Source of the DNA: Clostridia bacterium
Lineage (GTDB): Bacteria; Bacillota; Clostridia; Christensenellales; CAG-138
Direction of reading: 5' to 3'
NCBI GenBank assembly: GCA_017451295.1
Contig: JAFSPW010000057.1
Coordinates: forward strand, 8,227-72,226
DNA: 64,000 bases
Position 1 is the first letter of the stretch; each line of letters starts with the position of its first letter. This document shows positions 2,186 through 23,795 of this stretch, in pieces. The notes under the pieces are model-generated. The model did not search any database. It was not told where the DNA came from and was given only the letters and a program-made list of their open reading frames with translations. Position numbers and translations under genes: made by a program.

Positions 2186-4930
2186 ATGAGTTTCATTGAT
2201 AGATTGCTGGGGAACACCAGCGAGCAAAAGCTGAAAAAGATGCGGCCGGTGGTGGCCAAAATAAACGGCCTGGAACCGAAGTACCAGGCCATGACCGACG
2301 AGCAGCTGCGGCAGCAGACGGAGCTGTTCAAGGAGCGCCTAACCCGGGGGGAGACCCTGGACGATTTGCTTCCCGAGGCCTTTGCCGTGGTTCGGGAGGC
2401 CGCCGTGCGTACCGTGGGCATGCGGCACTTTGATGTGCAGCTGCTGGGCGGCATGGTGCTCCATCAGGGCCGCATTGCGGAGATGAAGACCGGCGAGGGC
2501 AAAACCCTGGTGGCCACCCTTCCCGCTTACCTCAACGCCCTTTCGGGCAAGGGTGTCCATATCGTCACCGTCAACGACTATCTGGCCCGCCGCGATGCCC
2601 AGTGGATGGGCAAGATTCATCGCTTCCTGGGCCTTTCCGTGGGCTGCATCGTCCACGACTTGACGGCCGACGAGCGCCGCGCTGCCTATGCCTGCGATAT
2701 CACCTACGGCACCAACAACGAGTTTGGTTTTGACTACCTGCGGGACAACATGGTGGTCTATAAGGAGAACATGGTCCAGCGGGAGCTGAACTATGCCATC
2801 GTGGACGAGGTGGACTCCATCCTTATCGACGAGGCCAGAACCCCCCTCATCATCAGCGGTCAGGGGGAGGAAAGCTCCGAAATGTATCGGGAGGCGGACC
2901 GGTTCGTCCGCCGTCTCACCCGGGGCGAGGACATCAAGGACATCAGCAAGTCCGACCAGATGATGGGCATCCAGCAGGAGGACAGCGGGGACTATATGTG
3001 CGACATTCGCCGCCGCACCGTCCAGCTGACGGCCCAGGGTATCGAAAAGGCCCAGAAGCACTTCCATGTGGAGAACCTGTCGGATGTGGAGAACACGGAG
3101 CTGAACCACTACATCAAGCAGGCCCTTCGTGCCCACGCCCTCTTCACCCGGGATAAGGACTATGTGGTCCAGGACGGGCAGGTCCTCATCGTGGACGAGT
3201 TCACCGGCCGGCTCATGATCGGCCGCCGCTATAACGAAGGCCTTCACCAGGCCCTGGAAGCCAAGGAAGGGGTCAAGGTGGAGCGGGAGAACAAGACCCT
3301 GGCCACCATCACCTTCCAGAACTACTTCCGCATGTTCCATAAGCTGGCGGGCATGACCGGTACCGCCAAGACCGAGGAGGACGAGTTCACCGCCATCTAC
3401 GGCCTCGATGTCGTGGAGGTCCCTACCAACAAGCCCTGCATCCGGGAGGACAAGCCCGATATGGTCTATTCCACCGAAGCCGGGAAGTTCCGGGCCGTGG
3501 TGGAGGAGATTGTGGCCGTCCATAAGACGGGCCGTCCCCTGCTGGTGGGCACCATCAGCGTGGAAAAGAGCGAGTATCTTTCCGACCGGCTCAGCCGGGC
3601 CGGGGTGCCGCACCAGGTCTTAAACGCCAAATTCCATGCCAAGGAGGCCCAAATCGTGGCCCAGGCGGGCAAGCTCAACGCCGTCACCATCGCCACCAAC
3701 ATGGCCGGCCGCGGCACGGATATTCTGCTGGGCGGCAACCCGGACTTTTTGGCCCGGCAAGCCCTCATGCGAGACGGTCTGGAGGAGGACTTAATCGAGG
3801 AAGCCACGGGCCATGCGGAGACCGGCGATGAAACCATTCTCGCCGCCCGCGCTAAGTATAAGGAGTATTATGATGCCTTCAAGGTGGAGACGGACCGGGA
3901 GCACGCCCAAGTGGTGGCCCTGGGTGGTCTGCACATCATCGGCACCGAACGGCACGAAAGCCGCCGCATCGACAACCAGCTAAGAGGCCGGGCCGGCCGT
4001 CAGGGGGACCCGGGCAGCACCCGGTTCTATGTGTCCTTGCAGGACGAGCTGATGCGCCGCTTCGGGGCGGACCGGGTGGAAGGCATCATGGCCAAGCTGA
4101 ACCCCGGGGACGAGATTCCCATCGAAAACGGCCTCATCACCCGGCAGATTGAGGGCGCCCAGAAGCGGGTGGAGATGGCCAACTTCGACACCCGCAAGAA
4201 CGTGCTGCGCTATGACGATGTCATGAACAAGCAGCGGGAGATTATCTATGGCCAGCGCCGCCAGGTCCTCATGGGGGAGGACATGCACCAGAGCTTCCTC
4301 GGCATGATAGAGGACACCATAGAGAGCATCGTCAACGCCTACTGCCCCAAGGAGGGGAAGGCCGAGCAATGGAATCTGTCCCTTGTCGCCAAGGAGATTT
4401 GCGATTTATGCGCCCTGCCCCCGGTGGATATTTTCGCCGGGCAGCCCGTCTCCCGTCAGGAGGATGTGATGGCCATCTGCCGGGCCTATGTGAATCGGGC
4501 CCTTGAGAATAAGGCCCAGGAGCTGCAGCAGGCCGGTATCGACCTCCACGAGGTGGAACGGGTGGTGCTCCTTCGCACCGTGGACACCCACTGGATGGAT
4601 CACATCGACGCCATGGACCAGCTGCGCCAGGGCATCGGCCTTAGGGCATACGCCCAGAAGGACCCGGTGGTGGCCTACACCAACGAAGGCTTTGAAATGT
4701 TCGATGCCATGGTTTCGGCCATTCGGGAGGAGGCCGTCAAGGGCCTTATGCGGGTAGCGGTCCGCAAGGCGCCCGTGGTGCGGCAGCAGGTGGCCAAGCC
4801 CGTGGACACCCCGTCCCCCGAGGGGAACGCGCCCATGAAGAAGCTGGCTGCCGATAAGGTGGGCAGAAACGATCCCTGTCCCTGCGGCAGCGGAAAGAAA
4901 TATAAGAACTGCCACGGCAGAAACTTGTAG
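2186..4930 (+). CDS. secA: preprotein translocase ATPase SecA
   Basis: 914 aa with motor motifs [20 protein letters not shown] and [20 protein letters not shown], and the C-terminal zinc finger [14 protein letters not shown]. Confidence 0.98.
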
Positions 4931-4994
4931 CGCCCGGTAAAGCACAAGCGTATCTCGGCACACAAATCTACCAAAGCAGAAGGAGAAGATAAAC

Positions 4995-13954: not shown

Positions 13955-14815
13955 TCATTCTACCACCCGGGCTTGTTTCCCGTCAAGCACTATTTGCACC
14001 CCGGACAGCAGGTCCGTCCGCAGTATCCGGCAGCCCGCCGCTTCCAGCCGGTCAAGGGCCTCCTGTGTGGGATGCTTATATTCGTTATCCCTTCCCACGC
14101 TGATGACGGCCACCTCCGGTTCCACCACTTTAAGGAAAACCTCCGAGGTGGAGGAGGCGGAGCCGTGATGCCCCACCTTCAGCACCTGTGCCTGCAGCAG
14201 CTCCCTTGGATAGGTGAACAGCAGGCTTTCCTCCGTCTCAAAGGTGCCGTCCGCCATAAACAGCGCCTGGTTCTCCCCGTAGCTTAGGGACAGCACCATG
14301 GAGCCGTCGTTCACCTCCGGGTAATAGACGTCCGGCAGGGGACTTAGCACCCGCAAGGTTGCCTCCCCAAAGGTGAAGGCCTCGCCGCCCCAAACCTGGC
14401 GGCAGTAGGCACCCCGGCGCCTCGCTATGACCATTCCGCTGCCATAGTCCGCGGGAAGCCCTTCAAAGTATACGCCTTTGATATGGAACTTTCGCACCAG
14501 GGTCCCCAGGTTCCCGCAGTGGTCCTCGTGGGGGTGGGTCAAAAACAGATAGTCCACCCGGTCGATGCCCAGGGCTTTGAGCTGCTGCACCACCTGCCGG
14601 CGGCTGCTCTCTGGCCCCGTATCAATTATCAGCCGTTCCCCGTTTGGAAAGGTGATAAGGGTGCTGTCTCCCTGTCCCACATCGAGAAACACGAGGTTTA
14701 CCTTGTCCGCTTCCAGAGGGCCGGGGCTTGGGGCAGCCGCTGCCTTTTGGCGGCAGCTTAGCAGCACCAGCAGCGCCAGCAGCGCCGCAGCAAGGGCCAT
14801 CAGCCGCCGCTTCAT
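13955..14815 (-). CDS. secreted MBL-fold metallo-hydrolase (ComEC C-terminal-domain-like)
   Basis: Has a signal peptide (MKRRLMALAAALLALLVLLSC) and the HxHxDH motif (HPHEDHCGN). Confidence 0.8.
   Translation of the reverse strand: MKRRLMALAAALLALLVLLSCRQKAAAAPSPGPLEADKVNLVFLDVGQGDSTLITFPNGERLIIDTGPESSRRQVVQQLKALGIDRVDYLFLTHPHEDHCGNLGTLVRKFHIKGVYFEGLPADYGSGMVIARRRGAYCRQVWGGEAFTFGEATLRVLSPLPDVYYPEVNDGSMVLSLSYGENQALFMADGTFETEESLLFTYPRELLQAQVLKVGHHGSASSTSEVFLKVVEPEVAVISVGRDNEYKHPTQEALDRLEAAGCRILRTDLLSGVQIVLDGKQARVVE
13957..13986 (-). promoter_or_regulatory. candidate promoter of the pheS T-box leader
   Basis: On the minus strand: TTGACG, 18 nt spacer, TGG-TAGAAT (extended -10). It overlaps the 3' end of the upstream MBL gene. 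Confidence 0.5.
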
Positions 14816-15507
14816 GCCTGCCCCTCCACCACATCAAACACCTGCACCACGCCCTCCTTCACCACAAACCGTATGTCATATTTCCCATAGGCAAACCCAT
14901 AGGGGTCCTCCCGGCCAATGAGATACCCGGGCCGAGGGTCAAGGGACAGGGCGGACAGCAAAGCCGCCTGCTTCTGTTGGGGAATGCGCTCGAGCAGCTC
15001 CGGGGGAAATGTAACCGGCAGCCGGTTATCCTTCAAAGCCTCGGCAAAGCCGTTTCGCGCCTCGGGGTGGCTGTCCGTAAAGGACAGATAGGGTTTGATG
15101 TCATAGATGGGGGAGCCGTCCATCAAATCCGCCCCGGCGACGCGCAGCACCGTGCCCTTGCCGGGCAGCTTCTCTATGCCCAGCAGCTCCACGGAGGATA
15201 GCCCCAAAGGATTGGGCCGGAAGGGGGAACGGGTGGCAAACACGCCCATGCGCTTGTTTCCGCCGAGCTTAGGGGGCTTTACCATGGGGGACCAAGCCTG
15301 CTGCTTCACCTCAGAAAAGCCCCAAATCAGCCACAGGTGGCTGTACCCCTCCAGGCCCCTTAGGGCGTTCTCGTCCCGATAGGCTTTTTCAAACACCACC
15401 AACGCCTCCAGGGACGGCACCAGATTGCTCTGCCGGGGGATGCCGAACTTCTCCTTAAAATCGCTCTCGATGCGGGCGATAACCTGCAATGTAAACTCCT
15501 CTTTCAT
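14812..15507 (-). CDS. trmO: tRNA (N6-threonylcarbamoyladenosine(37)-N6)-methyltransferase TrmO (TsaA/YaeB family)
   Basis: 231 aa with a TsaA-like N-terminus (IARIESDFKEKFGIPRQS...). It overlaps the downstream gene by 4 nt. Confidence 0.8.
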   Translation of the reverse strand: MKEEFTLQVIARIESDFKEKFGIPRQSNLVPSLEALVVFEKAYRDENALRGLEGYSHLWLIWGFSEVKQQAWSPMVKPPKLGGNKRMGVFATRSPFRPNPLGLSSVELLGIEKLPGKGTVLRVAGADLMDGSPIYDIKPYLSFTDSHPEARNGFAEALKDNRLPVTFPPELLERIPQQKQAALLSALSLDPRPGYLIGREDPYGFAYGKYDIRFVVKEGVVQVFDVVEGQA

Positions 15508-17400: not shown

Positions 17401-18411
17401 TCAGTCGGCGATAGCCACATACCCATCGGGCACAGTCAGCCCCAGGGTATTGCAGATGGAGGCGTTGTACATCTTCTGGATGCCGGCGGCTTCCTGCACC
17501 GGCATGGTGGACACGTCCGCACCGGCAAGGATGTCCAGCGCCATCTTGCCCGTGGCCTTGCCCAGCTCATAGTAGCTCAGGGTCAGGGTGACGGTGCCGC
17601 AGCCCTTGCACAGGCTCTCTTCACCGGCCACAATGGGGGTCTTGGCGTTGATAGCCACGTTGTTGATGGCCTCGGCGCAGGAGGCGGCGGTGTTGTCCGT
17701 GGGGATGAAGATAACATCCACGGCGTCGCAGGCGCTCTTTGTCACGGCGGCCACGTCGTTGGAATCGGCGAAGGTGAAGCTCTGCACCTCAAGTCCAAGG
17801 GCGGTGAAGGCGGCGGTCAGCTCCTCAGCCTGGAAGACGGAGTTGGCTTCGCCGGAGCAGTACAGCAGACCCACGGTCTTGGCTTCGGGGAACATTTCGG
17901 GCACCAGGGCAGCCTGCAGCTCTGCGCTCACATAGTCGGAGGTGCCGGATACATTGATGCCGGTGCTGTTGTCGGCGGCCAGGGTCAGGGTCAAAGCCTC
18001 GCCGTAGTTGGTGACGGAGGTGCCCAGCACCGGAATGGTGTTGGTGGCGGAGGCGGCGGCGGACAGGGCGGGGGTGGCGTTGGCCAGAATCAAATCGACT
18101 TCCTCAGACACGAACTGACCGCAGATAACGGCGCAGCTGGCGGGGTCGCCGGAGGCGTTCTGGTTCAAAAAGGTGACCTTGTCCCCAAGCTCAGCCGAAA
18201 TAGCATCCATAAAACCCTGGGTGGCCATGTCAAGGGCAGGGTGCTGCACCAGCTGGCAGATGCCGATGGTATAGGTCTTGTCCGCTGCCGCAGGGGCATC
18301 GCTGACGGTCTCTGCCGCAGAGGCAGGGGTGGAAGTCTCGGTAGTCTTAGCGCACGCAAGGGCGCTAAAGCACAGCAGCAAAGCGAGGGTCAGTGCCAGG
18401 ATTTTTTTCAT
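17401..18411 (-). CDS. ABC transporter substrate-binding lipoprotein (ABC_sub_bind/PF04392-like; TrpX-type family)
   Basis: Start trimmed to MKKILALTLALLLCFSALACA (lipobox) after AAAGGAG. Family-typical YTIGICQLVQHPALD ... ANATPALSAA. Confidence 0.85.
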   Translation of the reverse strand: MKKILALTLALLLCFSALACAKTTETSTPASAAETVSDAPAAADKTYTIGICQLVQHPALDMATQGFMDAISAELGDKVTFLNQNASGDPASCAVICGQFVSEEVDLILANATPALSAAASATNTIPVLGTSVTNYGEALTLTLAADNSTGINVSGTSDYVSAELQAALVPEMFPEAKTVGLLYCSGEANSVFQAEELTAAFTALGLEVQSFTFADSNDVAAVTKSACDAVDVIFIPTDNTAASCAEAINNVAINAKTPIVAGEESLCKGCGTVTLTLSYYELGKATGKMALDILAGADVSTMPVQEAAGIQKMYNASICNTLGLTVPDGYVAIAD

Positions 18412-18455
18412 TGTCTTTCTCCTTTTTATCTCTCTTTTTGTGTTCCGTTTACTCC

Positions 18456-18495
18456 GCAAAAAAGGAGCCGCAGCAGCTTGTGTCTGTGCGGCTCC
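18456..18495 (-). terminator. intrinsic terminator/attenuator between the leader ORF and the ABC binding-protein gene
   Basis: On the minus strand: GGAGCCGCA-14 nt loop-TGCGGCTCC (18464-18495) followed by TTTTTT (18458-18463). Confidence 0.8.
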
Positions 18496-18514
18496 GATAA
18501 GATCGTGTCAGGCG

Positions 18515-18604
18515 TTACGGTCTTCCGTATGGGCGGCACAAACGGCTTTTACCATAGTAAAAGTAATAATAGCCGTATGCATACCCGGTGAGAAGACGCT
18601 TCAT
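18515..18604 (-). CDS. 29-codon Tyr-rich leader peptide ORF (MKRLLTGYAYGYYYFYYGKSRLCRPYGRP)
   Basis: ATG 18604 lies 11 nt after AAAGGA, and the stop TAA is at 18515-18517. Of 29 codons, 8 are Tyr and 1 is Phe. The ORF sits between its own promoter and a terminator and is below the ORF-track size cutoff. Confidence 0.5.
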   Translation of the reverse strand: MKRLLTGYAYGYYYFYYGKSRLCRPYGRP

Positions 18605-18634
18605 GTCGTTCACTTTCCTTTGCGTGTTGGTGGT

Positions 18635-18663
18635 ACTGTACCACACCTTTTGGCCTGTGTCAA
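18635..18663 (-). promoter_or_regulatory. sigmaA-type promoter of the leader ORF/ABC importer operon
   Basis: On the minus strand: TTGACA (18658-18663), 17 nt spacer, TGG-TACAGT (18635-18640, extended -10). Confidence 0.6.
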
Positions 18664-18696
18664 TAGAATTATATATGATTCATACCAGAACTTTTA

Positions 18697-19167
18697 TCAG
18701 CTTCCCTGAATAATCGACAGGAGCTTGCGTTTGCAGGCCCCCAAATAGCCTCTCAGCCGCAGCAAAAAGAAGCGAACAGGGTACCAGCGGCACCAGGTGT
18801 TCACATACAGCCGGTAGGGAAGGGAAGCAAAGTTCAGGGGCTTTGTGTCCCGAATGACCCCGGTGAGTATGCCCAGAATCTGCCCCTCGGCGACCGTCTC
18901 GCCGCTGATGCAGTTGTCGCCCACAATCCAGTAGGTCCCGTCCTCGTTCACCTTCAAAATCCTGTGCAGCACGTAGGCCCCCTCGGGACCCGGCCGCCGA
19001 AACAGCACCGCCTCCAGGTTTTTACACCGCTGGGGGCCCTTCTTTTCAATGATCATCAGGTCCCGCCCCTGTCGCAGCAGCGGCATCATGCTGACCCCCC
19101 GGTTGGTGTACACGAGGCGTCCGTCCCGTTCCAGCAATTCTTCAAATGTGGCAGTGGTCTCGTTCAT
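18697..19167 (-). CDS. S24/S26-family (signal-peptidase-like) serine peptidase
   Basis: GVSMMPLL (Ser nucleophile context) and HRILKV (general-base Lys context). 156 aa. Confidence 0.65.
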   Translation of the reverse strand: MNETTATFEELLERDGRLVYTNRGVSMMPLLRQGRDLMIIEKKGPQRCKNLEAVLFRRPGPEGAYVLHRILKVNEDGTYWIVGDNCISGETVAEGQILGILTGVIRDTKPLNFASLPYRLYVNTWCRWYPVRFFLLRLRGYLGACKRKLLSIIQGS

Positions 19168-19170
19168 AGC

Positions 19171-19908
19171 CTATCTTTTGAGCATGGCGGCGGAGCTGAC
19201 CTTAGCCGCCTCCAAATCCATATTGCACCACAGCCGATAGAGTTTGACCCCCTGGCCGATACGCCCCACCAGCGGGAGGGTTTTTAGCATGCCGTCCCCG
19301 CCCTCGGGCCGATAGGCCTGGCGAATAAGGTCCGCAAAGGCCTCGCTGAAGCTGATTTCCTCGATGCGGTTGCTCTCTCCCCGATGGATGATGCAGATAG
19401 CCTGCAGGGGCAGAATCTCGTTGGTGCCGTAGTTCTCCTTGCCCTGCCAGGGGTCAGCGCAGCAAAGCACCTGCCCGTCCGGTTCCAGGGCCAAAAAAGG
19501 CTTGTCCCCGTTTAGCACATGGGCCTCGGGCAGCAGCTCAAGCCAGAGCCGTGTGTGGGTGGTCTTTCCCGTGCCGGAGGGAGCCGTGAACATATAGGCC
19601 CGGCCGCCCACAGCCAAGCAGGACCCGTGGAACAACAGCTTGTCCTTCATCAGCAGCGCATCGGCCACCTTGCGTAAGATGGCCTGGGTCTCCATGTAGC
19701 GGTCGGAATACCGCCGGGGAGGCACCCCGTCCAGCTCGTCCTGGAGCCTGGCCTGCTCCCGTTCATAGGAAAGGTCCTCCGGGGAGATGGCAACGAAAAG
19801 TTCCGCCGGGCCGGAGGATAGATAGTCCCTAAAGAAGGACCGGGTATCCGGGCACAGGGCGCTGATGCCTATCTTCACGCCGCAAAGCTCTATGCTAAAG
19901 TCGTGCAT
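19171..19908 (-). CDS. HPr-kinase-related (HprK C-terminal-like) P-loop protein
   Basis: Start trimmed to MHDFSIELCG after AAAGGA. It has the P-loop APSGTGKTTH in the context LFHGSCLAVGGRAYMFTAPSGTGKTT, which is typical of the HprK-like kinases found in RiPP clusters. Confidence 0.6.
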   Translation of the reverse strand: MHDFSIELCGVKIGISALCPDTRSFFRDYLSSGPAELFVAISPEDLSYEREQARLQDELDGVPPRRYSDRYMETQAILRKVADALLMKDKLLFHGSCLAVGGRAYMFTAPSGTGKTTHTRLWLELLPEAHVLNGDKPFLALEPDGQVLCCADPWQGKENYGTNEILPLQAICIIHRGESNRIEEISFSEAFADLIRQAYRPEGGDGMLKTLPLVGRIGQGVKLYRLWCNMDLEAAKVSSAAMLKR

Positions 19909-19941
19909 TGGCTGTCCTTTCTGTCTGTGTACCTTGCAGCT

Positions 19942-19970
19942 ATTATAGTGGAAAGCCGGTTGGTTGGCAA
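19942..19970 (-). promoter_or_regulatory. near-consensus promoter for the HprK-like/S24 peptidase genes
   Basis: On the minus strand: TTGCCA (19965-19970), 17 nt spacer, TATAAT (19942-19947). Confidence 0.65.
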
Positions 19971-19996
19971 GCGGGGAAATCCCTCCCGCATGCACA

Positions 19997-20025
19997 TTGA
20001 CAGCCGGGGATATTTTTTCTATACT
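19997..20025 (+). promoter_or_regulatory. near-consensus promoter for the PqqD-ABC exporter genes
   Basis: TTGACA (19997-20002), 17 nt spacer, TATACT (20020-20025). It sits back-to-back with the minus-strand promoter. The palindrome GCGGGGAAATCCCTCCCGC lies between the two -35 boxes. Confidence 0.65.
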
Positions 20026-20073
20026 GTGTATATACAATCATGGGGCAATGGGCCCCGGAAACAGGAGCAAGAT

Positions 20074-20343
20074 ATGCAACTTCATCCAGACTTTGTTTTG
20101 CAGCAGATGCCGGGGGATATGGCCGTGCTGGTGCCCACCGGCGAGGCGGGGGAACGGTATAGGGGCATCGTCCGCCTCAACGAAACCGCCGCTTTCATCG
20201 TGGAACGGCTGCAGCAGGACACCACCCGGGAGCAGATTGTTGCCGCCCTGGGGGAGGAATACGAAGGGGACGAAAAGGACTTTTTTGCCTCCGTGGACCA
20301 CACCGTCAGCGAGCTCAAGAAGGTAGGCGCCATCCTTGACTAA
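20074..20343 (+). CDS. PqqD-family protein (RiPP recognition element-like)
   Basis: 89 aa, with ATG after AGGAGCAAGAT. PqqD-like pattern MAVLVPTGE...IVRLNETAAFIVERLQQDTTREQIVAAL. Confidence 0.7.
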   Translation: MQLHPDFVLQQMPGDMAVLVPTGEAGERYRGIVRLNETAAFIVERLQQDTTREQIVAALGEEYEGDEKDFFASVDHTVSELKKVGAILD

Positions 20344-20401
20344 GGAAGCCAAAAGAGAAGCACCGAAGCAGGACCGGCGCCTGATTTCCAAGGAACGGGG
20401 C

Positions 20402-22120
20402 ATGTCCCTGTCCACGCTTCGCTGGCTGTATCAGGTTCCCGGCAAGAAGCGGGGGTACGTGCTGTCCCTGTCGGCCCTGTATGCCCTGACGGGCTCCATG
20501 GGCGTGGTCTATGCCCTGCTGATGCGCGCCATTGTGGATAGCGCCGTGGCGGGGAACATGACCGCCTTTTGGGAAAATGTGCTGTACATCGTGGCTTTGG
20601 TAGCGGTGCGCCTGGGGCTCAACGCCCTCATCCGGTGGCTGGACGAGCAGGCCAGAACGGACCTCGAGAATTGCTTCAAGCAGCGGCTGACAAAAAGCAT
20701 CCTCAAAAAGGACTATGCCTCCGTCAGCGCCATCCACTCCGGGGAATGGATGAACCGCCTCACGAGCGACACCGGCGTGGTGGCCGGGGGTTTTGTGGAC
20801 ATTCTGCCGGGCTTGGTGGGCACCCTGGTCCGCCTTGTCAGCGCCCTCGTCATGATTATCGCCCTGGATGCCTGGTTTGCCTATATCCTTCTGCCCGGAG
20901 GTCTGCTGCTGGTAGGGCTGACCTATGCCTTTCGCAAGGTGCTCAAACGCCTCCACAAGTCCATCCAGGAGGCGGACGGCCGCCTGCGTATCTTCTTGCA
21001 GGAGCGCATCGGCGGGCTGCTGATGATTAAATCCTTCGCCGCCGAGGAGGCTACCGAGGCTGCCGCAGCGGACTATATGCGCCGGCATAAGGCCGCCCGT
21101 ATGCGCCGCCTTCGCTTCTCCAACTTCTGCAACGTGGGCTTTGGCGCCGCCATGCAGGGCATGTATCTGCTGGGCGCCGTCTACTGCGCTTACGGTATTC
21201 TAAACGGCACCGTGTCCTACGGCACCATGACCGCCGTGATGCAGCTTATCGGCCAGGTCCAGGCGCCCTTTGCCAACATCAGCGGCTACCTGCCCCGGTT
21301 CTATGCCATGTCCGCCAGTGCCGAACGGCTCATGGAGGTGGAAAACTTTGCGGACGACGGCACCGAAAACCCCCTGTCCATGGAGGCTGTCAACGGCTTC
21401 TATGAGCAAGAGCTTGCGGCGGTGGGCCTGCAGAATGCGTCCTTTACCTATTATGCCCAGGCCGAAAGCATGGACCAGCTAAATAAGGACAACATGCCCG
21501 TGGTACTTAGGGACTTTTCCGTGGAGATTTCCAAAGGGGAGTATGTGGCCTTTACGGGTCACAGCGGCTGCGGCAAGTCCACGGCCCTGAAGCTCTTCAT
21601 GTGCATGTACCGTCTGGACGGCGGCAGCCGCTATATCCGCACCACCGACGGCATGGAGTGGGACCTGTCCCCCGATTGGCGGCGGCTCTTTGCCTATGTG
21701 CCGCAGGGGAACCAGCTGGTCAGCGACACCATCCGCCGCACGGTGGCCTTCTCGGATGTGGAACGGGCGGGGGAGGAGGAAGCCCTTTGGCAAGCGCTGC
21801 AAATCGCCTGCGCCGATGAGTTCGTCAGGGAGTTGGAAAACGGCCTTGACACCAAGCTGGGGGAGAGGGGCACCGGCCTTTCCGAAGGCCAGATGCAGCG
21901 CATCGCCATCGCTCGGGCCATCTTCTCCGGCAGCCCCGTGCTGCTGCTGGACGAAGCCACCAGCGCCCTGGACGAGCAGACGGAGGAACGGCTCCTTCAG
22001 AACCTGCGGAGCCTGACGGACAAGACCGTCCTCATCGTCACCCACCGCCCCGCCGCCCTGAAGATCTGCGACCGGGTCCTTCACTTCACGGAGGATGGGG
22101 TAGAGACGGCGAAAAGCTGA
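20402..22120 (+). CDS. ABC exporter, fused permease/ATPase
   Basis: N-terminal six-TM domain plus an NBD with Walker A GHSGCGKST, signature LSEGQMQRIAIARA and Walker B VLLLDEATSALD. There is no C39 peptidase domain. Start at ATG 20402 after AAGGAA; the alternative TTG at 20336 overlaps pqqD. Confidence 0.88.
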   Translation: MSLSTLRWLYQVPGKKRGYVLSLSALYALTGSMGVVYALLMRAIVDSAVAGNMTAFWENVLYIVALVAVRLGLNALIRWLDEQARTDLENCFKQRLTKSILKKDYASVSAIHSGEWMNRLTSDTGVVAGGFVDILPGLVGTLVRLVSALVMIIALDAWFAYILLPGGLLLVGLTYAFRKVLKRLHKSIQEADGRLRIFLQERIGGLLMIKSFAAEEATEAAAADYMRRHKAARMRRLRFSNFCNVGFGAAMQGMYLLGAVYCAYGILNGTVSYGTMTAVMQLIGQVQAPFANISGYLPRFYAMSASAERLMEVENFADDGTENPLSMEAVNGFYEQELAAVGLQNASFTYYAQAESMDQLNKDNMPVVLRDFSVEISKGEYVAFTGHSGCGKSTALKLFMCMYRLDGGSRYIRTTDGMEWDLSPDWRRLFAYVPQGNQLVSDTIRRTVAFSDVERAGEEEALWQALQIACADEFVRELENGLDTKLGERGTGLSEGQMQRIAIARAIFSGSPVLLLDEATSALDEQTEERLLQNLRSLTDKTVLIVTHRPAALKICDRVLHFTEDGVETAKS

Positions 22121-22202: not shown

Positions 22203-23795
22203 TTACAGGCTGAAATCCGCCGTGTTGTCGCGCTGATAGGAACACCAGTTGCCGTTTTCGATCAGTTCTTCGCGGGCAATCAATCGAAGCAGCGCATCGC
22301 ATTCGCCGAAACGGTCGATGCGATCGAGGACGGCGGCATAAAAGCGCTCCATTTTGACATGATCGGATGTTGTGCGCGAAAGCGACAGGCGTCCGTAATA
22401 GTTTGAGATAAACAGCGTTGCCGCCGAAATGCTGCCGAGCAGCAGCTTGGACAGCGTACGATAGAATTCGGCGTTTGCGATTTTCTGCGAAAACGGCAGC
22501 AAGCCGCCCCAAATGAGCTCGAAGAGCAACACCGCAAGATACAGCAGAATACTAACCCAAAGAGCAACGCGGACGATGCGTTCGCTCCCCTTGTGCGTGC
22601 GCTTTGACCAACCGACGGACCGTTCGTGATACCTGCGCTGTGCGTCGACCCATGCGTCACGGATGCGATTTGACCGATCCGGCGGAATGCCGACAGACAG
22701 AACTTTCAGCGCGGAGGCGACCCATCCGGTTTCCGTCTTGCCGGTCCACGGCAAAACATCGGCGGCGGAAATGCCGCTTCCGGCATAGCGTAAAAACGCC
22801 TGCACGCGCAGTCCCTCCGCCAGCATCCGATATTCGAGATAGCGCCGGTGCGAAGCAAAGCGGTTCCCGTACCGCTGCACAAGCCATGCAAGCAGCAGCA
22901 TTCCGCCGCAAACGAGAATCATTCCGTGCAATTCGGCTTCGTCATATAGAAGAAACGCAATCGTGATGACCGTGCTGATGATCGCAAGCGCGGCAAGAAT
23001 GCGGCGGTACTGTTTGGCAAAACGAACGCTCAAAGAATCCGCCTTTGCATACAGAGTTTCCATACGGTCGAGCTGCCTGTCCGGTTCCCGATCTGACGGC
23101 AAAAGCGCAGATTCGGATGCGGGCGCTTTCTTCGCCAGCCGGTTGAACTCGTCGGTCCGGGACAGCGTTTCGTCAAAAGCGGCACGGTCCCCGAGAAAAC
23201 GCACCGCTCCGGCGGCACTCGTTTCGTCACCTTTCCGCGGCGAAAGGATATGCAGCACGGGACAGCAGCCCCCGAGCGGAATCGAATCTTCCGGTGAATA
23301 ATCGCCGTCCAGAGCGCAATGCACGATCGCCGCCGTGCCGCAGTCTGAAGCGGGCGATTCCGCTCCGTCCCAAAGCGCGAGCAGCACATGGGCGTGCGAA
23401 GCAACATATACGCCCGCCTGCCGATACGCAAAGTCCCGATCCTTCGACGCGGGTGCGCGCTCCGTGTTGGGCGCAACAAAACAATCTTCCGCCGCGTCGC
23501 AAAGGGCCCGGAATGCGGGAAGCGCTTCCCCGGAAAAGTCCTTTTCATATTCCGTCCGATCCATCGGAAAAACGGCGATCAGCGACACACAAAGCGCCTG
23601 TGCGACCTCGGCGCAGAGGCGATCCGCACCGTCCGCAAGGCTGTTTTGCATCACGATTTTGGAATGCGGGCACCTGCTTTGCAGTGCCATGAGTTCCTGT
23701 TTGACTGCGTTGTATAAAACGTCGCGGTCCTCCGGACGGATGTCTCGATGTCCCGTTACGCCGACGACGATCGGGATCGTATCCTGCTCTGCCAT
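22203..23795 (-). CDS. SLOG-like (YpsA/LOG/DprA-type Rossmannoid) domain fused to four TM helices (2 x SLATT-like 2TM modules)
   Basis: 530 aa. The N-terminus has IVVGVTGHRD...SLADGADRLCAEVAQAL...AHVLLALWDG..SDCGTAAIV, matching the SLOG pattern G-TGhR / G-A-G-D / ..D.....G. TM helices: ILAALAIISTVITIAFLLY, GMILVCGGMLLLAWLV, IVRVALWVSILLYLAVLLFELIW, LLLGSISAATLFISNYY. SD AAGGAG. Domain calls are by eye. Confidence 0.6.
   Translation of the reverse strand: MAEQDTIPIVVGVTGHRDIRPEDRDVLYNAVKQELMALQSRCPHSKIVMQNSLADGADRLCAEVAQALCVSLIAVFPMDRTEYEKDFSGEALPAFRALCDAAEDCFVAPNTERAPASKDRDFAYRQAGVYVASHAHVLLALWDGAESPASDCGTAAIVHCALDGDYSPEDSIPLGGCCPVLHILSPRKGDETSAAGAVRFLGDRAAFDETLSRTDEFNRLAKKAPASESALLPSDREPDRQLDRMETLYAKADSLSVRFAKQYRRILAALAIISTVITIAFLLYDEAELHGMILVCGGMLLLAWLVQRYGNRFASHRRYLEYRMLAEGLRVQAFLRYAGSGISAADVLPWTGKTETGWVASALKVLSVGIPPDRSNRIRDAWVDAQRRYHERSVGWSKRTHKGSERIVRVALWVSILLYLAVLLFELIWGGLLPFSQKIANAEFYRTLSKLLLGSISAATLFISNYYGRLSLSRTTSDHVKMERFYAAVLDRIDRFGECDALLRLIAREELIENGNWCSYQRDNTADFSL

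Follow-up and report, generated by a model that had tools for sequence, protein, structure and literature searches.

The tyrosine-rich leader and its importer operon

The window (the whole stretch of DNA analysed here) comprises 64,000 nucleotides (nt) of contig JAFSPW010000057.1 of the Clostridia bacterium assembly GCA_017451295.1. The organism is present in goat and bovine gut metagenomes. On the minus strand of the window lies an operon for a predicted tyrosine ABC importer, preceded by a leader with a tyrosine-rich short open reading frame (sORF) and an intrinsic terminator. In the original prediction, made from the letters alone, this arrangement was read as a leader-peptide attenuator. 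The promoter, ribosome binding site, sORF, terminator and start of the binding-protein gene that it named were all recovered on the minus strand by a direct check of the sequence, each at the coordinates first given for it.

The transcript of the leader and the importer genes is predicted to start from a sigma-70-type promoter (18663-18635), consisting of a -35 element TTGACA (18663-18658), a 17-nt spacer and an extended -10 element TGg-TACAGT (18643-18635). In a consensus scan this promoter had 10 of 12 matches plus the TG extension. A Shine-Dalgarno (SD)-like sequence, AAAGGAAAG, is found at 18621-18613, with its AGGA core 11 nt upstream of the start codon of the sORF. The sORF itself runs from the ATG at 18604 to a TAA at 18517-18515 and has 29 codons plus the stop codon (18604-18515). 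Among the 29 residues of its product, MKRLLTGYAYGYYYFYYGKSRLCRPYGRP, are 8 Tyr and 1 Phe. Tyr thus makes up 28% of the peptide, against 3.2% of the residues in ten proteins encoded in the window, in which Phe accounts for 4.4%. Codons 8-17 (Y A Y G Y Y Y F Y Y, 18583-18554) form the putative regulatory aromatic run.

The terminator, GGAGCCGCACAG...CUGcUGCGGCUCC followed by U6, occupies 18495-18458 and its hairpin has a predicted stability of -20.5 kcal/mol. Within it GGAGCCGCA(CAG) at 18495-18484 pairs with (CUG)C-UGCGGCUCC at 18476-18464, and the T6 tract is at 18463-18458. The leader as a whole folds more stably than shuffled sequence (z = -4.4). Downstream of the terminator the binding-protein gene starts with its own SD sequence and an ATG at 18411.

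Three importer genes follow, all on the minus strand and identified by profile matches: a substrate-binding lipoprotein (PF04392, 17401-18411), a permease (PF02653, 16371-17309) and an ATPase (PF00005, 15581-16378). The operon is closed by a terminator at 15568-15551, downstream of the ATPase gene. In the orthologous loci the order binding protein, permease, ATPase was kept wherever the contig was long enough; L016, L035 and several short contigs end before the ATPase gene.

Among solved structures, the nearest to the binding protein are 6HNI (CD0873, E = 9e-44), 3LKV and 3LFT, for which the ligands are Tyr, Phe and Trp, respectively (PMC6816091). In CD0873, Glu-263 bonds the hydroxyl group of Tyr, and Ala is found at this position in the Phe and Trp binders (PMC6816091). 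Tyr-279 of CD0873 keeps Trp out, with Gln in its place in the Trp binder SP1069 (PMC6816091). The window protein has Glu (VAG-E-ES) at the position of Glu-263 and Tyr (LS-Y-YELG) at that of Tyr-279. It therefore has both tyrosine-specifying residues in common with its closest solved relative, CD0873 (PDB 6HNI, PMC6816091), although the aligned sequences have clearly diverged. Both residues are invariant in all orthologs of 50-68% identity. A possible relation of the pocket residues to the presence of a leader or to the Tyr:Phe ratio of its codons was considered and rejected, since Glu and Tyr do not vary across this clade.

The importer had originally been described as TrpX-type. It does belong to the same PF04392 family, but the binding protein scored 213.5 bits with the TrpX equivalog model (NCBIfam NF041285), against a cutoff of 390, and its pocket is not of the Trp type (Ala and Gln). 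Based on these comparisons the importer is predicted to be CD0873-like and of the tyrosine type, and not a TrpX equivalog. Because the binding protein has the tyrosine-specifying residues of CD0873, the regulated genes were judged to act on the amino acid that would be sensed by the leader, with the specificity deduced from these residues. The predicted substrate agrees with the codon that is over-represented in the leader.

Conservation of the leader and of its alternative RNA structures

Seven leaders were compared, namely those of the window, L034, L035, L042, L043, L044 and L045-L047 (with L045 as representative). Five of the six leaders from outside the window were reached via protein homology alone. 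Conservation of the sORF upstream of orthologous importers had been named as a check on the original prediction, and it was borne out in six further diverged lineages: in each of these the layout of promoter, SD sequence, aromatic sORF and terminator was found 5' of the orthologous binding-protein gene. The binding proteins of these lineages are 57-68% identical to that of the window. The nearest relatives with a full leader are P0123 (68%, L034) and P0122 (66%, L035), and a sister clade around L042 also carries it (L042, L043, L044 and L045-L047). All six other leaders have the promoter arrangement TTGAC(A/T)-17-TGnTAnAGT. The upstream neighbour differs between the loci; it is a cluster with S24-like and ScmC-like genes (described below) in the window, unrelated divergent genes in L034 and L042, and a divergent LytR_cpsA_psr gene in L043-L047. 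The encoded peptides are MKQLFAGAYGYYYFYCGKSCLCRPKKQ in L034, MKQTIFAGAYGYYYSYSDRSCLCCPKRS in L035 (with a TTG start), MTKFRFAFAYGYYYYYRGSNSGLCCKETLGQDMR in L042, MTKNRFAYAYSYYYYFFGKSNSGLCCKES in L043, MTNFRFAGAYRYYFYFYGSKSGLCCKESFGQDLR in L044 and MMKFVFAVAFGFYYYFFGMSNRSLCCK in L045. In L043 (2790-3000) approximately 220 nt separate the terminator from the start codon of the binding-protein gene, versus 35-60 nt in the other leaders.

The distribution of the leader is narrow. Among 24 reference-genome loci with binding proteins of 32-62% identity, no aromatic-run sORF, no T-box and no ScmC, S24 or PqqD genes were found. Taken alone, this pass would have led to the wrong conclusion that the leader is not conserved, as it occurs only in closer relatives and one sister clade. 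Judging from the genomes compared, the leader most likely occurs only in a small group of uncultured Clostridia from the ruminant gut. The upstream regions of leaderless orthologs are heterogeneous, with no alternative element in common. Orthologous importers with a tyrosine-type pocket in L001-L015 likewise had upstream regions without a T-box, a common sORF or a common terminator. It appears that control of the importer operon turns over quickly between related gut Clostridia. In L039 (and also in L040 and L041; binding protein 63% identical) another sORF of 34 residues, MHQNLSGHVSLYTFTQVRYAGRYDRTSHKARRVD, is present at 4767-4871. It has no aromatic run and is followed by a strong terminator (4905-4945, -24 kcal/mol) 5' of the orthologous importer, as in L040 and L041. 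This sORF and terminator may form another attenuator, unrelated to the present one, in this operon family.

RNAalifold analysis of the seven sequences predicted one long hairpin over the sORF (designated 1:2) and the terminator, with compensatory changes in 9 pairs. In the window, folding and alignment place the 5' arm of the 1:2 or anti-antiterminator hairpin (region 1, GGGUAUGCAUACGGCU) at 18586-18571, the terminator 5' arm with the first loop bases (region 3, GGAGCCGCACAGAC) at 18495-18482, and the terminator 3' arm CUGCUGCGGCUCC with U6 (region 4) at 18476-18458. Region 2, GCCGUUUGUGCCGCCC, at 18546-18531, has two alternative partners, region 1 or, as antiterminator, the 5' arm of the terminator. 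Within the 1:2 structure an apical hairpin, CUUUUAC-UAUG-GUAAAAG (18563-18546), is indicated by compensatory changes in relatives. Scored as an explicit structure, the 1:2 hairpin was 88% paired, with 3 compensatory pairs. Its lower stem covaries, being GGG/CCC in the window and CUUUG/CAAAG or UUUGCA/UGCAAA in the others. The apical CUUUUAC/GUAAAAG of the window and L034 is replaced, through three compensatory pairs, by CUCCUAU-UCCG-AUAGGAG in L035, and reads CUAUUACU...AGUAAUAG in L042. The terminator helix was 93% paired, also with 3 compensatory pairs, and a score at least as high was reached in 2 of 500 shuffles. The stabilities of the four terminator hairpins computed range from -20.5 to -23.3 kcal/mol, and L043-L045 have similar hairpins. 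A U-rich tract follows the terminator in all seven leaders, with interruptions in L035 and L042.

That GUGCCGCCC (18539-18531) can pair with the terminator 5' arm had first been noticed by eye. Folding confirmed it, and the helix proved to run 4 nt further 5', with GUUUGUGC (18543-18536) pairing to GCACAGAC (18489-18482). The duplex in the window has a stability of -17.5 kcal/mol (p = 0.003, 1000 shuffles). When GUYUGUGC.GC in region 2 was aligned to GC.GCACAGAY in region 3, all 70 of the 70 cells were paired, versus 19-63% in slid registers. The 2:3 duplexes of the individual leaders ranged from -13.8 to -18.4 kcal/mol, each with a p value of 0.001-0.025 (1000 shuffles). In L043 GCACAGAC is changed to GCACGAAC in region 3, and the change is matched in region 4 (GUUCGUGC); region 2 can still pair, since its U residues accept either A or G. 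The suspected antiterminator, mutually exclusive with the terminator, thus exists and is conserved in the seven leaders.

The sORF has the features of a translated frame. An SD sequence (GGAG, GGGAG or AAGGAG) precedes the ATG or TTG by 8-11 nt in all seven leaders. Each has an open frame of 27-34 codons, both other frames hold at least one stop in every sequence, and indels within the frame are 0, 3 or 6 nt in the seven-leader alignment. The aromatic content varies from 3 to 8 Tyr and from 1 to 6 Phe per leader (8:1 in the window, 3-6 Tyr in the others). The run mixes the two amino acids and is Tyr-dominant in six of the seven leaders. In the window, L034, L035 and L042 the five Tyr positions of A-Y-G-Y-Y-Y-x-Y are kept, and in L043-L045 some of them are swapped to Phe or shifted. 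The N- and C-termini of the peptide, on the other hand, are free in sequence and length, and the conserved peptide segments outside the aromatic run overlap RNA helices (FA and AYG in region 1, LC(C/R) in region 2). The codon of the fifth conserved Tyr changes synonymously from UAC to UAU, and the paired base in the 3' arm turns a Gly into Asp. Since Tyr is kept while residues encoded by the 3' arm change to hold the pairing, the Tyr codons and the RNA structure seem to be under selection, and the peptide product not.

A search of Rfam with 18200-18900 at E ≤ 10 gave 7 sub-threshold matches, all chance-like, with no T-box and no curated amino-acid leader family among them. At the gathering score, the whole window and 12 orthologous loci yielded only tRNAs or chance-level matches, and again no T-box or leader family. 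A known riboswitch or T-box, which would have offered another explanation of the leader, was accordingly not found in Rfam.

A predicted attenuator and its alternatives

Ribosome positions were modelled by walking a 30-nt ribosome mask along the sORF of transcripts that ended just 5' of the terminator 3' arm. Truncated transcripts were folded instead of complete ones at equilibrium because persistence of the terminator is expected where the decision is kinetic. Without a ribosome, the 1:2 hairpin formed and region 3 was free in five of the seven leaders. The 2:3 antiterminator formed in all seven as long as the A-site had not passed the last codon of the aromatic run. One to two codons past the run, region 2 came under the ribosome and the antiterminator was lost, and the range of permissive ribosome positions ended at the last aromatic codons in all seven leaders. 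By these folds, the range that is permissive for antitermination has the aromatic codons at its 3' end, which is also where trpL has its regulatory codons.

We consider it probable that the element is a ribosome-mediated transcription attenuator of the predicted tyrosine ABC importer and that it responds to Tyr, with some contribution of Phe. The attenuator originally proposed gains support from the conservation of the leader, from the conserved antiterminator and from the lack of a riboswitch or T-box match in Rfam. To the anatomy, conservation, alternative pairings, importer link and tyrosine-type binding pocket established here, this reading adds steps that we infer, namely that ribosomes stall, that the structures fold in a given order and that read-through depends on Tyr. 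Transcription would start at the promoter at 18663-18635, and the first approximately 170 nt of the RNA would carry the 29-codon sORF and the intrinsic terminator. The RNA of the sORF would fold as the long 1:2 hairpin, of which the 5' arm and the apical part are built of Tyr codons and one Phe codon. When charged tRNA-Tyr is ample, the ribosome would run through and cover region 2, or 1:2 would re-form behind it. Region 3 could then form the terminator with region 4, and transcription would end at the U-tract 5' of the binding-protein gene. When charged tRNA-Tyr (and, depending on the lineage, tRNA-Phe) is short, the ribosome is expected to stall in the aromatic run, leaving region 1 single-stranded. 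In this state region 2 (GUUUGUGC.GCC) would pair with the 5' arm of the terminator (GG.GC.GCACAGAC), no terminator would form and the importer genes would be transcribed.

The RNA contigs that map to the window are fragments without direction, most of which come from related species. In two metatranscriptome runs, contigs on L042 (2909-3339 and 2980-3585) join the leader, the terminator and the binding-protein gene in one molecule, and one of these runs had zero coverage over the 180 nt 5' of the promoter. This fits with the leader being part of the importer mRNA and being read through in the rumen; the contigs are silent on regulation.

Several points weigh against the attenuator as proposed. 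The RNA data consist of assembled contigs without strand or usable depth. The sample contains seven sequences from two sub-clades that are not mutually independent, and one of these (L042) was retrieved by a pattern scan that demanded Tyr codons and region 2. In addition, 15 genome loci and one further lineage, with binding proteins of 50-63% identity, are without the leader. The antiterminator helix shows five one-sided changes, all neutral to pairing, and zero two-sided compensatory changes. The run is partly Phe, and L045, with 3 Tyr and 6 Phe, nevertheless has a binding pocket of the Tyr type. In the folding model the truncated transcripts of L043 and L044 prefer the antiterminator even without a ribosome, and the antiterminator returns when the ribosome sits on the final five or six codons in L042 and L044, or on the stop codon in the window. 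Equilibrium folds retain the terminator in the minimum-energy structure under every ribosome mask, so that the model hinges on the order of co-transcriptional folding, as in classical attenuators. Finally, an uncoupling of transcription from translation has been reported for B. subtilis and may extend beyond it (Johnson et al. 2020, as cited in PMC7858274), which would oppose the mechanism unless the RNA polymerase pauses in the leader. Our confidence is held at the level given because the seven sequences are few and related, the model makes kinetic assumptions, such uncoupling has been reported and the response to Tyr is deduced.

Other functions of the sORF or its RNA have to be considered. 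The sORF could encode a functional aromatic and Cys-rich micropeptide, for instance an accessory subunit of the importer or a signal, with the hairpin and terminator only setting the transcript level. The frame, SD sequence and start codon kept in all seven leaders fit such a peptide, and a motif A-Y-G-Y-Y-Y...S-x-L-C-C can be recognised at the protein level. However, each conserved peptide segment is also an RNA pairing segment, the termini vary (27-34 residues), and changes in the 3' arm that hold base pairs alter the peptide (Gly to Asp, Lys to Arg). The peptide has no protein family match, and a terminator between the gene and its operon partner together with a conserved competing helix is not expected of a plain micropeptide gene, which makes this explanation quite unlikely. 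Alternatively, the UAY-repeat hairpin could be read by a trans-acting factor (a TRAP-like Tyr-responsive protein, a tRNA or a small molecule) that shifts the balance between 1:2 and 2:3, the frame being incidental. The strong structure of the leader agrees with this, factor-dependent attenuators are common in Firmicutes, and the window, L034 and L035 share 19 nt (GCAUACGGCUAUUAUUACU) without a single difference, even at synonymous sites, although their binding proteins are only 66-73% identical. Yet this identity is accounted for by the chain of constraints from the 1-2, 2-3 and 3-4 pairings, and a non-coding element needs no conserved open frame, SD sequence, start codon or in-frame indels. 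The codons also stay aromatic in L042-L045, where the repeat differs in sequence and in structural role (bulge versus stem). Moreover, binding to region 1 at ample Tyr would turn the importer on at the wrong time, and the search of Rfam gave no family match. We regard a factor of this kind as quite improbable. It is very improbable that the hairpin is read, besides or instead of by the ribosome, by a trans-acting sensor of tyrosine status, such as a TRAP-like protein or uncharged tRNA-Tyr on UAY 'specifier' codons. Such a sensor, if real, would represent a novel type of aromatic-amino-acid riboregulator for Clostridia, and it would explain attenuation in a phylum in which transcription reportedly outruns translation.

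Translation could also be monitored in a less specific way, with the attenuator sensing a general slowing of ribosomes by antibiotics or global starvation (ermC/vmlR-type) rather than Tyr. In the fold model a stall anywhere in the first approximately 16 codons frees region 2, and leader peptides with drug-stalled ribosomes are the better known ones in Firmicutes by the accounts in PMC2965389 and PMC9226507. The operon, though, encodes an amino-acid importer and not a resistance factor, the binding pocket matches the over-represented codon, and 7-9 aromatic codons are kept aromatic over seven lineages, the signature of amino-acid-specific leaders; general slowing is therefore a very unlikely signal. 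The original prediction had itself named another candidate, in which the peptide would be the precursor lacking from the adjacent cluster of ScmC-like, S24-like, PqqD and ABC-exporter genes, which resembles clusters for ribosomally synthesised and post-translationally modified peptides (RiPPs). The sORF is co-oriented with the S24-like gene and lies 33 nt 3' of it, it is equipped with a separate promoter and terminator, which is common among bacteriocin precursors, and the cluster showed no further candidate for a precursor. The question whether the sORF follows the importer or the RiPP-like genes was answered by the comparison of loci: six other loci have the leader without a nearby ScmC-like, S24-like or PqqD gene, nine ScmC-like loci (L025-L033) have no Tyr-rich sORF, and the sORF is directly 5' of the importer gene in every case. 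A role as precursor is extremely unlikely and was rejected, because the sORF co-occurs with the importer and not with the ScmC-like and S24-like relatives.

Neighbouring genes and comparison with known systems

Upstream of the leader, the S24-like peptidase gene (18697-19167) and a gene for an HprK-like P-loop protein (ScmC-like, PF27840; 19171-19908), which lies 5' of it, are both on the minus strand. A PqqD-family gene (about 20077-20343) and a gene for an ABC exporter (20336-22120) point away from this pair, on the plus strand. With 617 proteins, the family of the HprK-like protein carries the precomputed label PF27840 'ScmC' and appears to be uncharacterised. The cluster in the window (18697-22120) is without a radical SAM enzyme and has no evident precursor ORF in the intergenic region 19908-20077. 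The pair of ScmC-like and S24-like genes recurs in the nine loci L025-L033, often with PqqD and a radical SAM enzyme. Visible precursors in ScmC-like loci are Cys/Ser/Thr-rich, 47-52 residues long and located beside the radical SAM enzyme, for example MKKVFSEPEVTVIRVEDNNVICTS... Further upstream (22203-23795, minus strand) a protein of 530 residues with weak matches to DUF4231/SLATT and YAcAr (SLOG-like) resembles components of conflict or defence systems. On the other side, directly 3' of the importer operon, a gene for TrmO (tRNA methyltransferase O; 14812-15507, minus strand) has a promoter-like site of its own at 15542-15514 and no evident link to the leader.

The leader would govern an uptake system and not a biosynthetic operon, in Clostridia, where amino-acid-sensing leaders are rare and known so far from predictions. 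Its codons and the pocket residues independently indicate tyrosine as the substrate for a clade of 'uncharacterised ABC substrate-binding proteins' from the ruminant gut. If the attenuator works as proposed, either ribosomes keep pace with RNA polymerase or the polymerase pauses, and coupling in Firmicutes could be tested on a natural element. The Tyr:Phe ratios, from 8:1 down to 3:6, together with the leaderless sister orthologs form a small natural series on the origin and tuning of an attenuator.

Leader-peptide attenuators are textbook knowledge for Trp, Phe, His, Thr, Leu and Ile/Val. With the leaders of pheL-pheA and pheST in E. coli (of the trpL and hisL type) the present element shares a short sORF with a run of the aromatic codons that are sensed, alternative 1:2, 2:3 and 3:4 helices that end in an intrinsic terminator, and the position of the regulatory codons in region 1, such that a stalled ribosome frees region 2. 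In contrast, the run described here is dominated by Tyr, not by Phe, Trp or His, the controlled genes encode an ABC importer instead of biosynthetic enzymes or a synthetase, and the host is an uncultured member of the Clostridia and not a proteobacterium. Neither sequence similarity nor a match to the Rfam models was found. Because no Rfam leader or T-box model matches, the element is taken not to be homologous to the proteobacterial leaders, and its origin is probably independent of those of the E. coli type.

The nearest aromatic precedent is the aroR leader of C. glutamicum, 5' of aroF, which contains a Phe-Tyr-Phe triplet and is stated to respond to Phe and not to Tyr (Neshat et al. 2014, as summarised in PMC11802643). 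As described in that summary, aroR is likewise a Gram-positive leader peptide with Tyr and Phe codons that controls an aromatic-amino-acid gene via ribosome stalling. The leaders compared here, however, have 3-8 Tyr and 1-6 Phe, and their target is an importer with a Tyr-type pocket.

Importers of the PF04392 type are under T-box control in other Firmicutes, as had been stated in the original prediction; this holds for trpXYZ of S. suis and S. pneumoniae (PMC9382623). In both cases uncharged tRNA would favour an antiterminator over a terminator and so induce uptake by a member of the same importer family. The T-box RNA, of approximately 460 nt, binds the tRNA directly, whereas the leader described here is approximately 170 nt long, appears to be translated and has no T-box match in Rfam.

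In 2010 leader peptides were thought to be nearly absent from Firmicutes, with a His-leader predicted for hisS/hisZ of bacilli (PMC2965389). His-leaders have since been predicted in the B. cereus group, in Peptostreptococcaceae including C. difficile, and in Erysipelotrichales (PMC9413887). These also are leader peptides that replace T-boxes or protein regulators in narrow lineages, showing that the mechanism occurs in the phylum. They differ in having 3-5 His codons and in preceding other genes, and they are known by computation only, as is the element described here. The known control of tyrosine genes at the RNA level is by T-boxes (PMC1262725), and a search of the literature (open-access papers and bioRxiv preprints) gave no description of a leader peptide with a Tyr run. 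What is new for this class is most likely the Tyr-dominant leader, while the mechanism itself would be the well-known one of leader-peptide attenuation.

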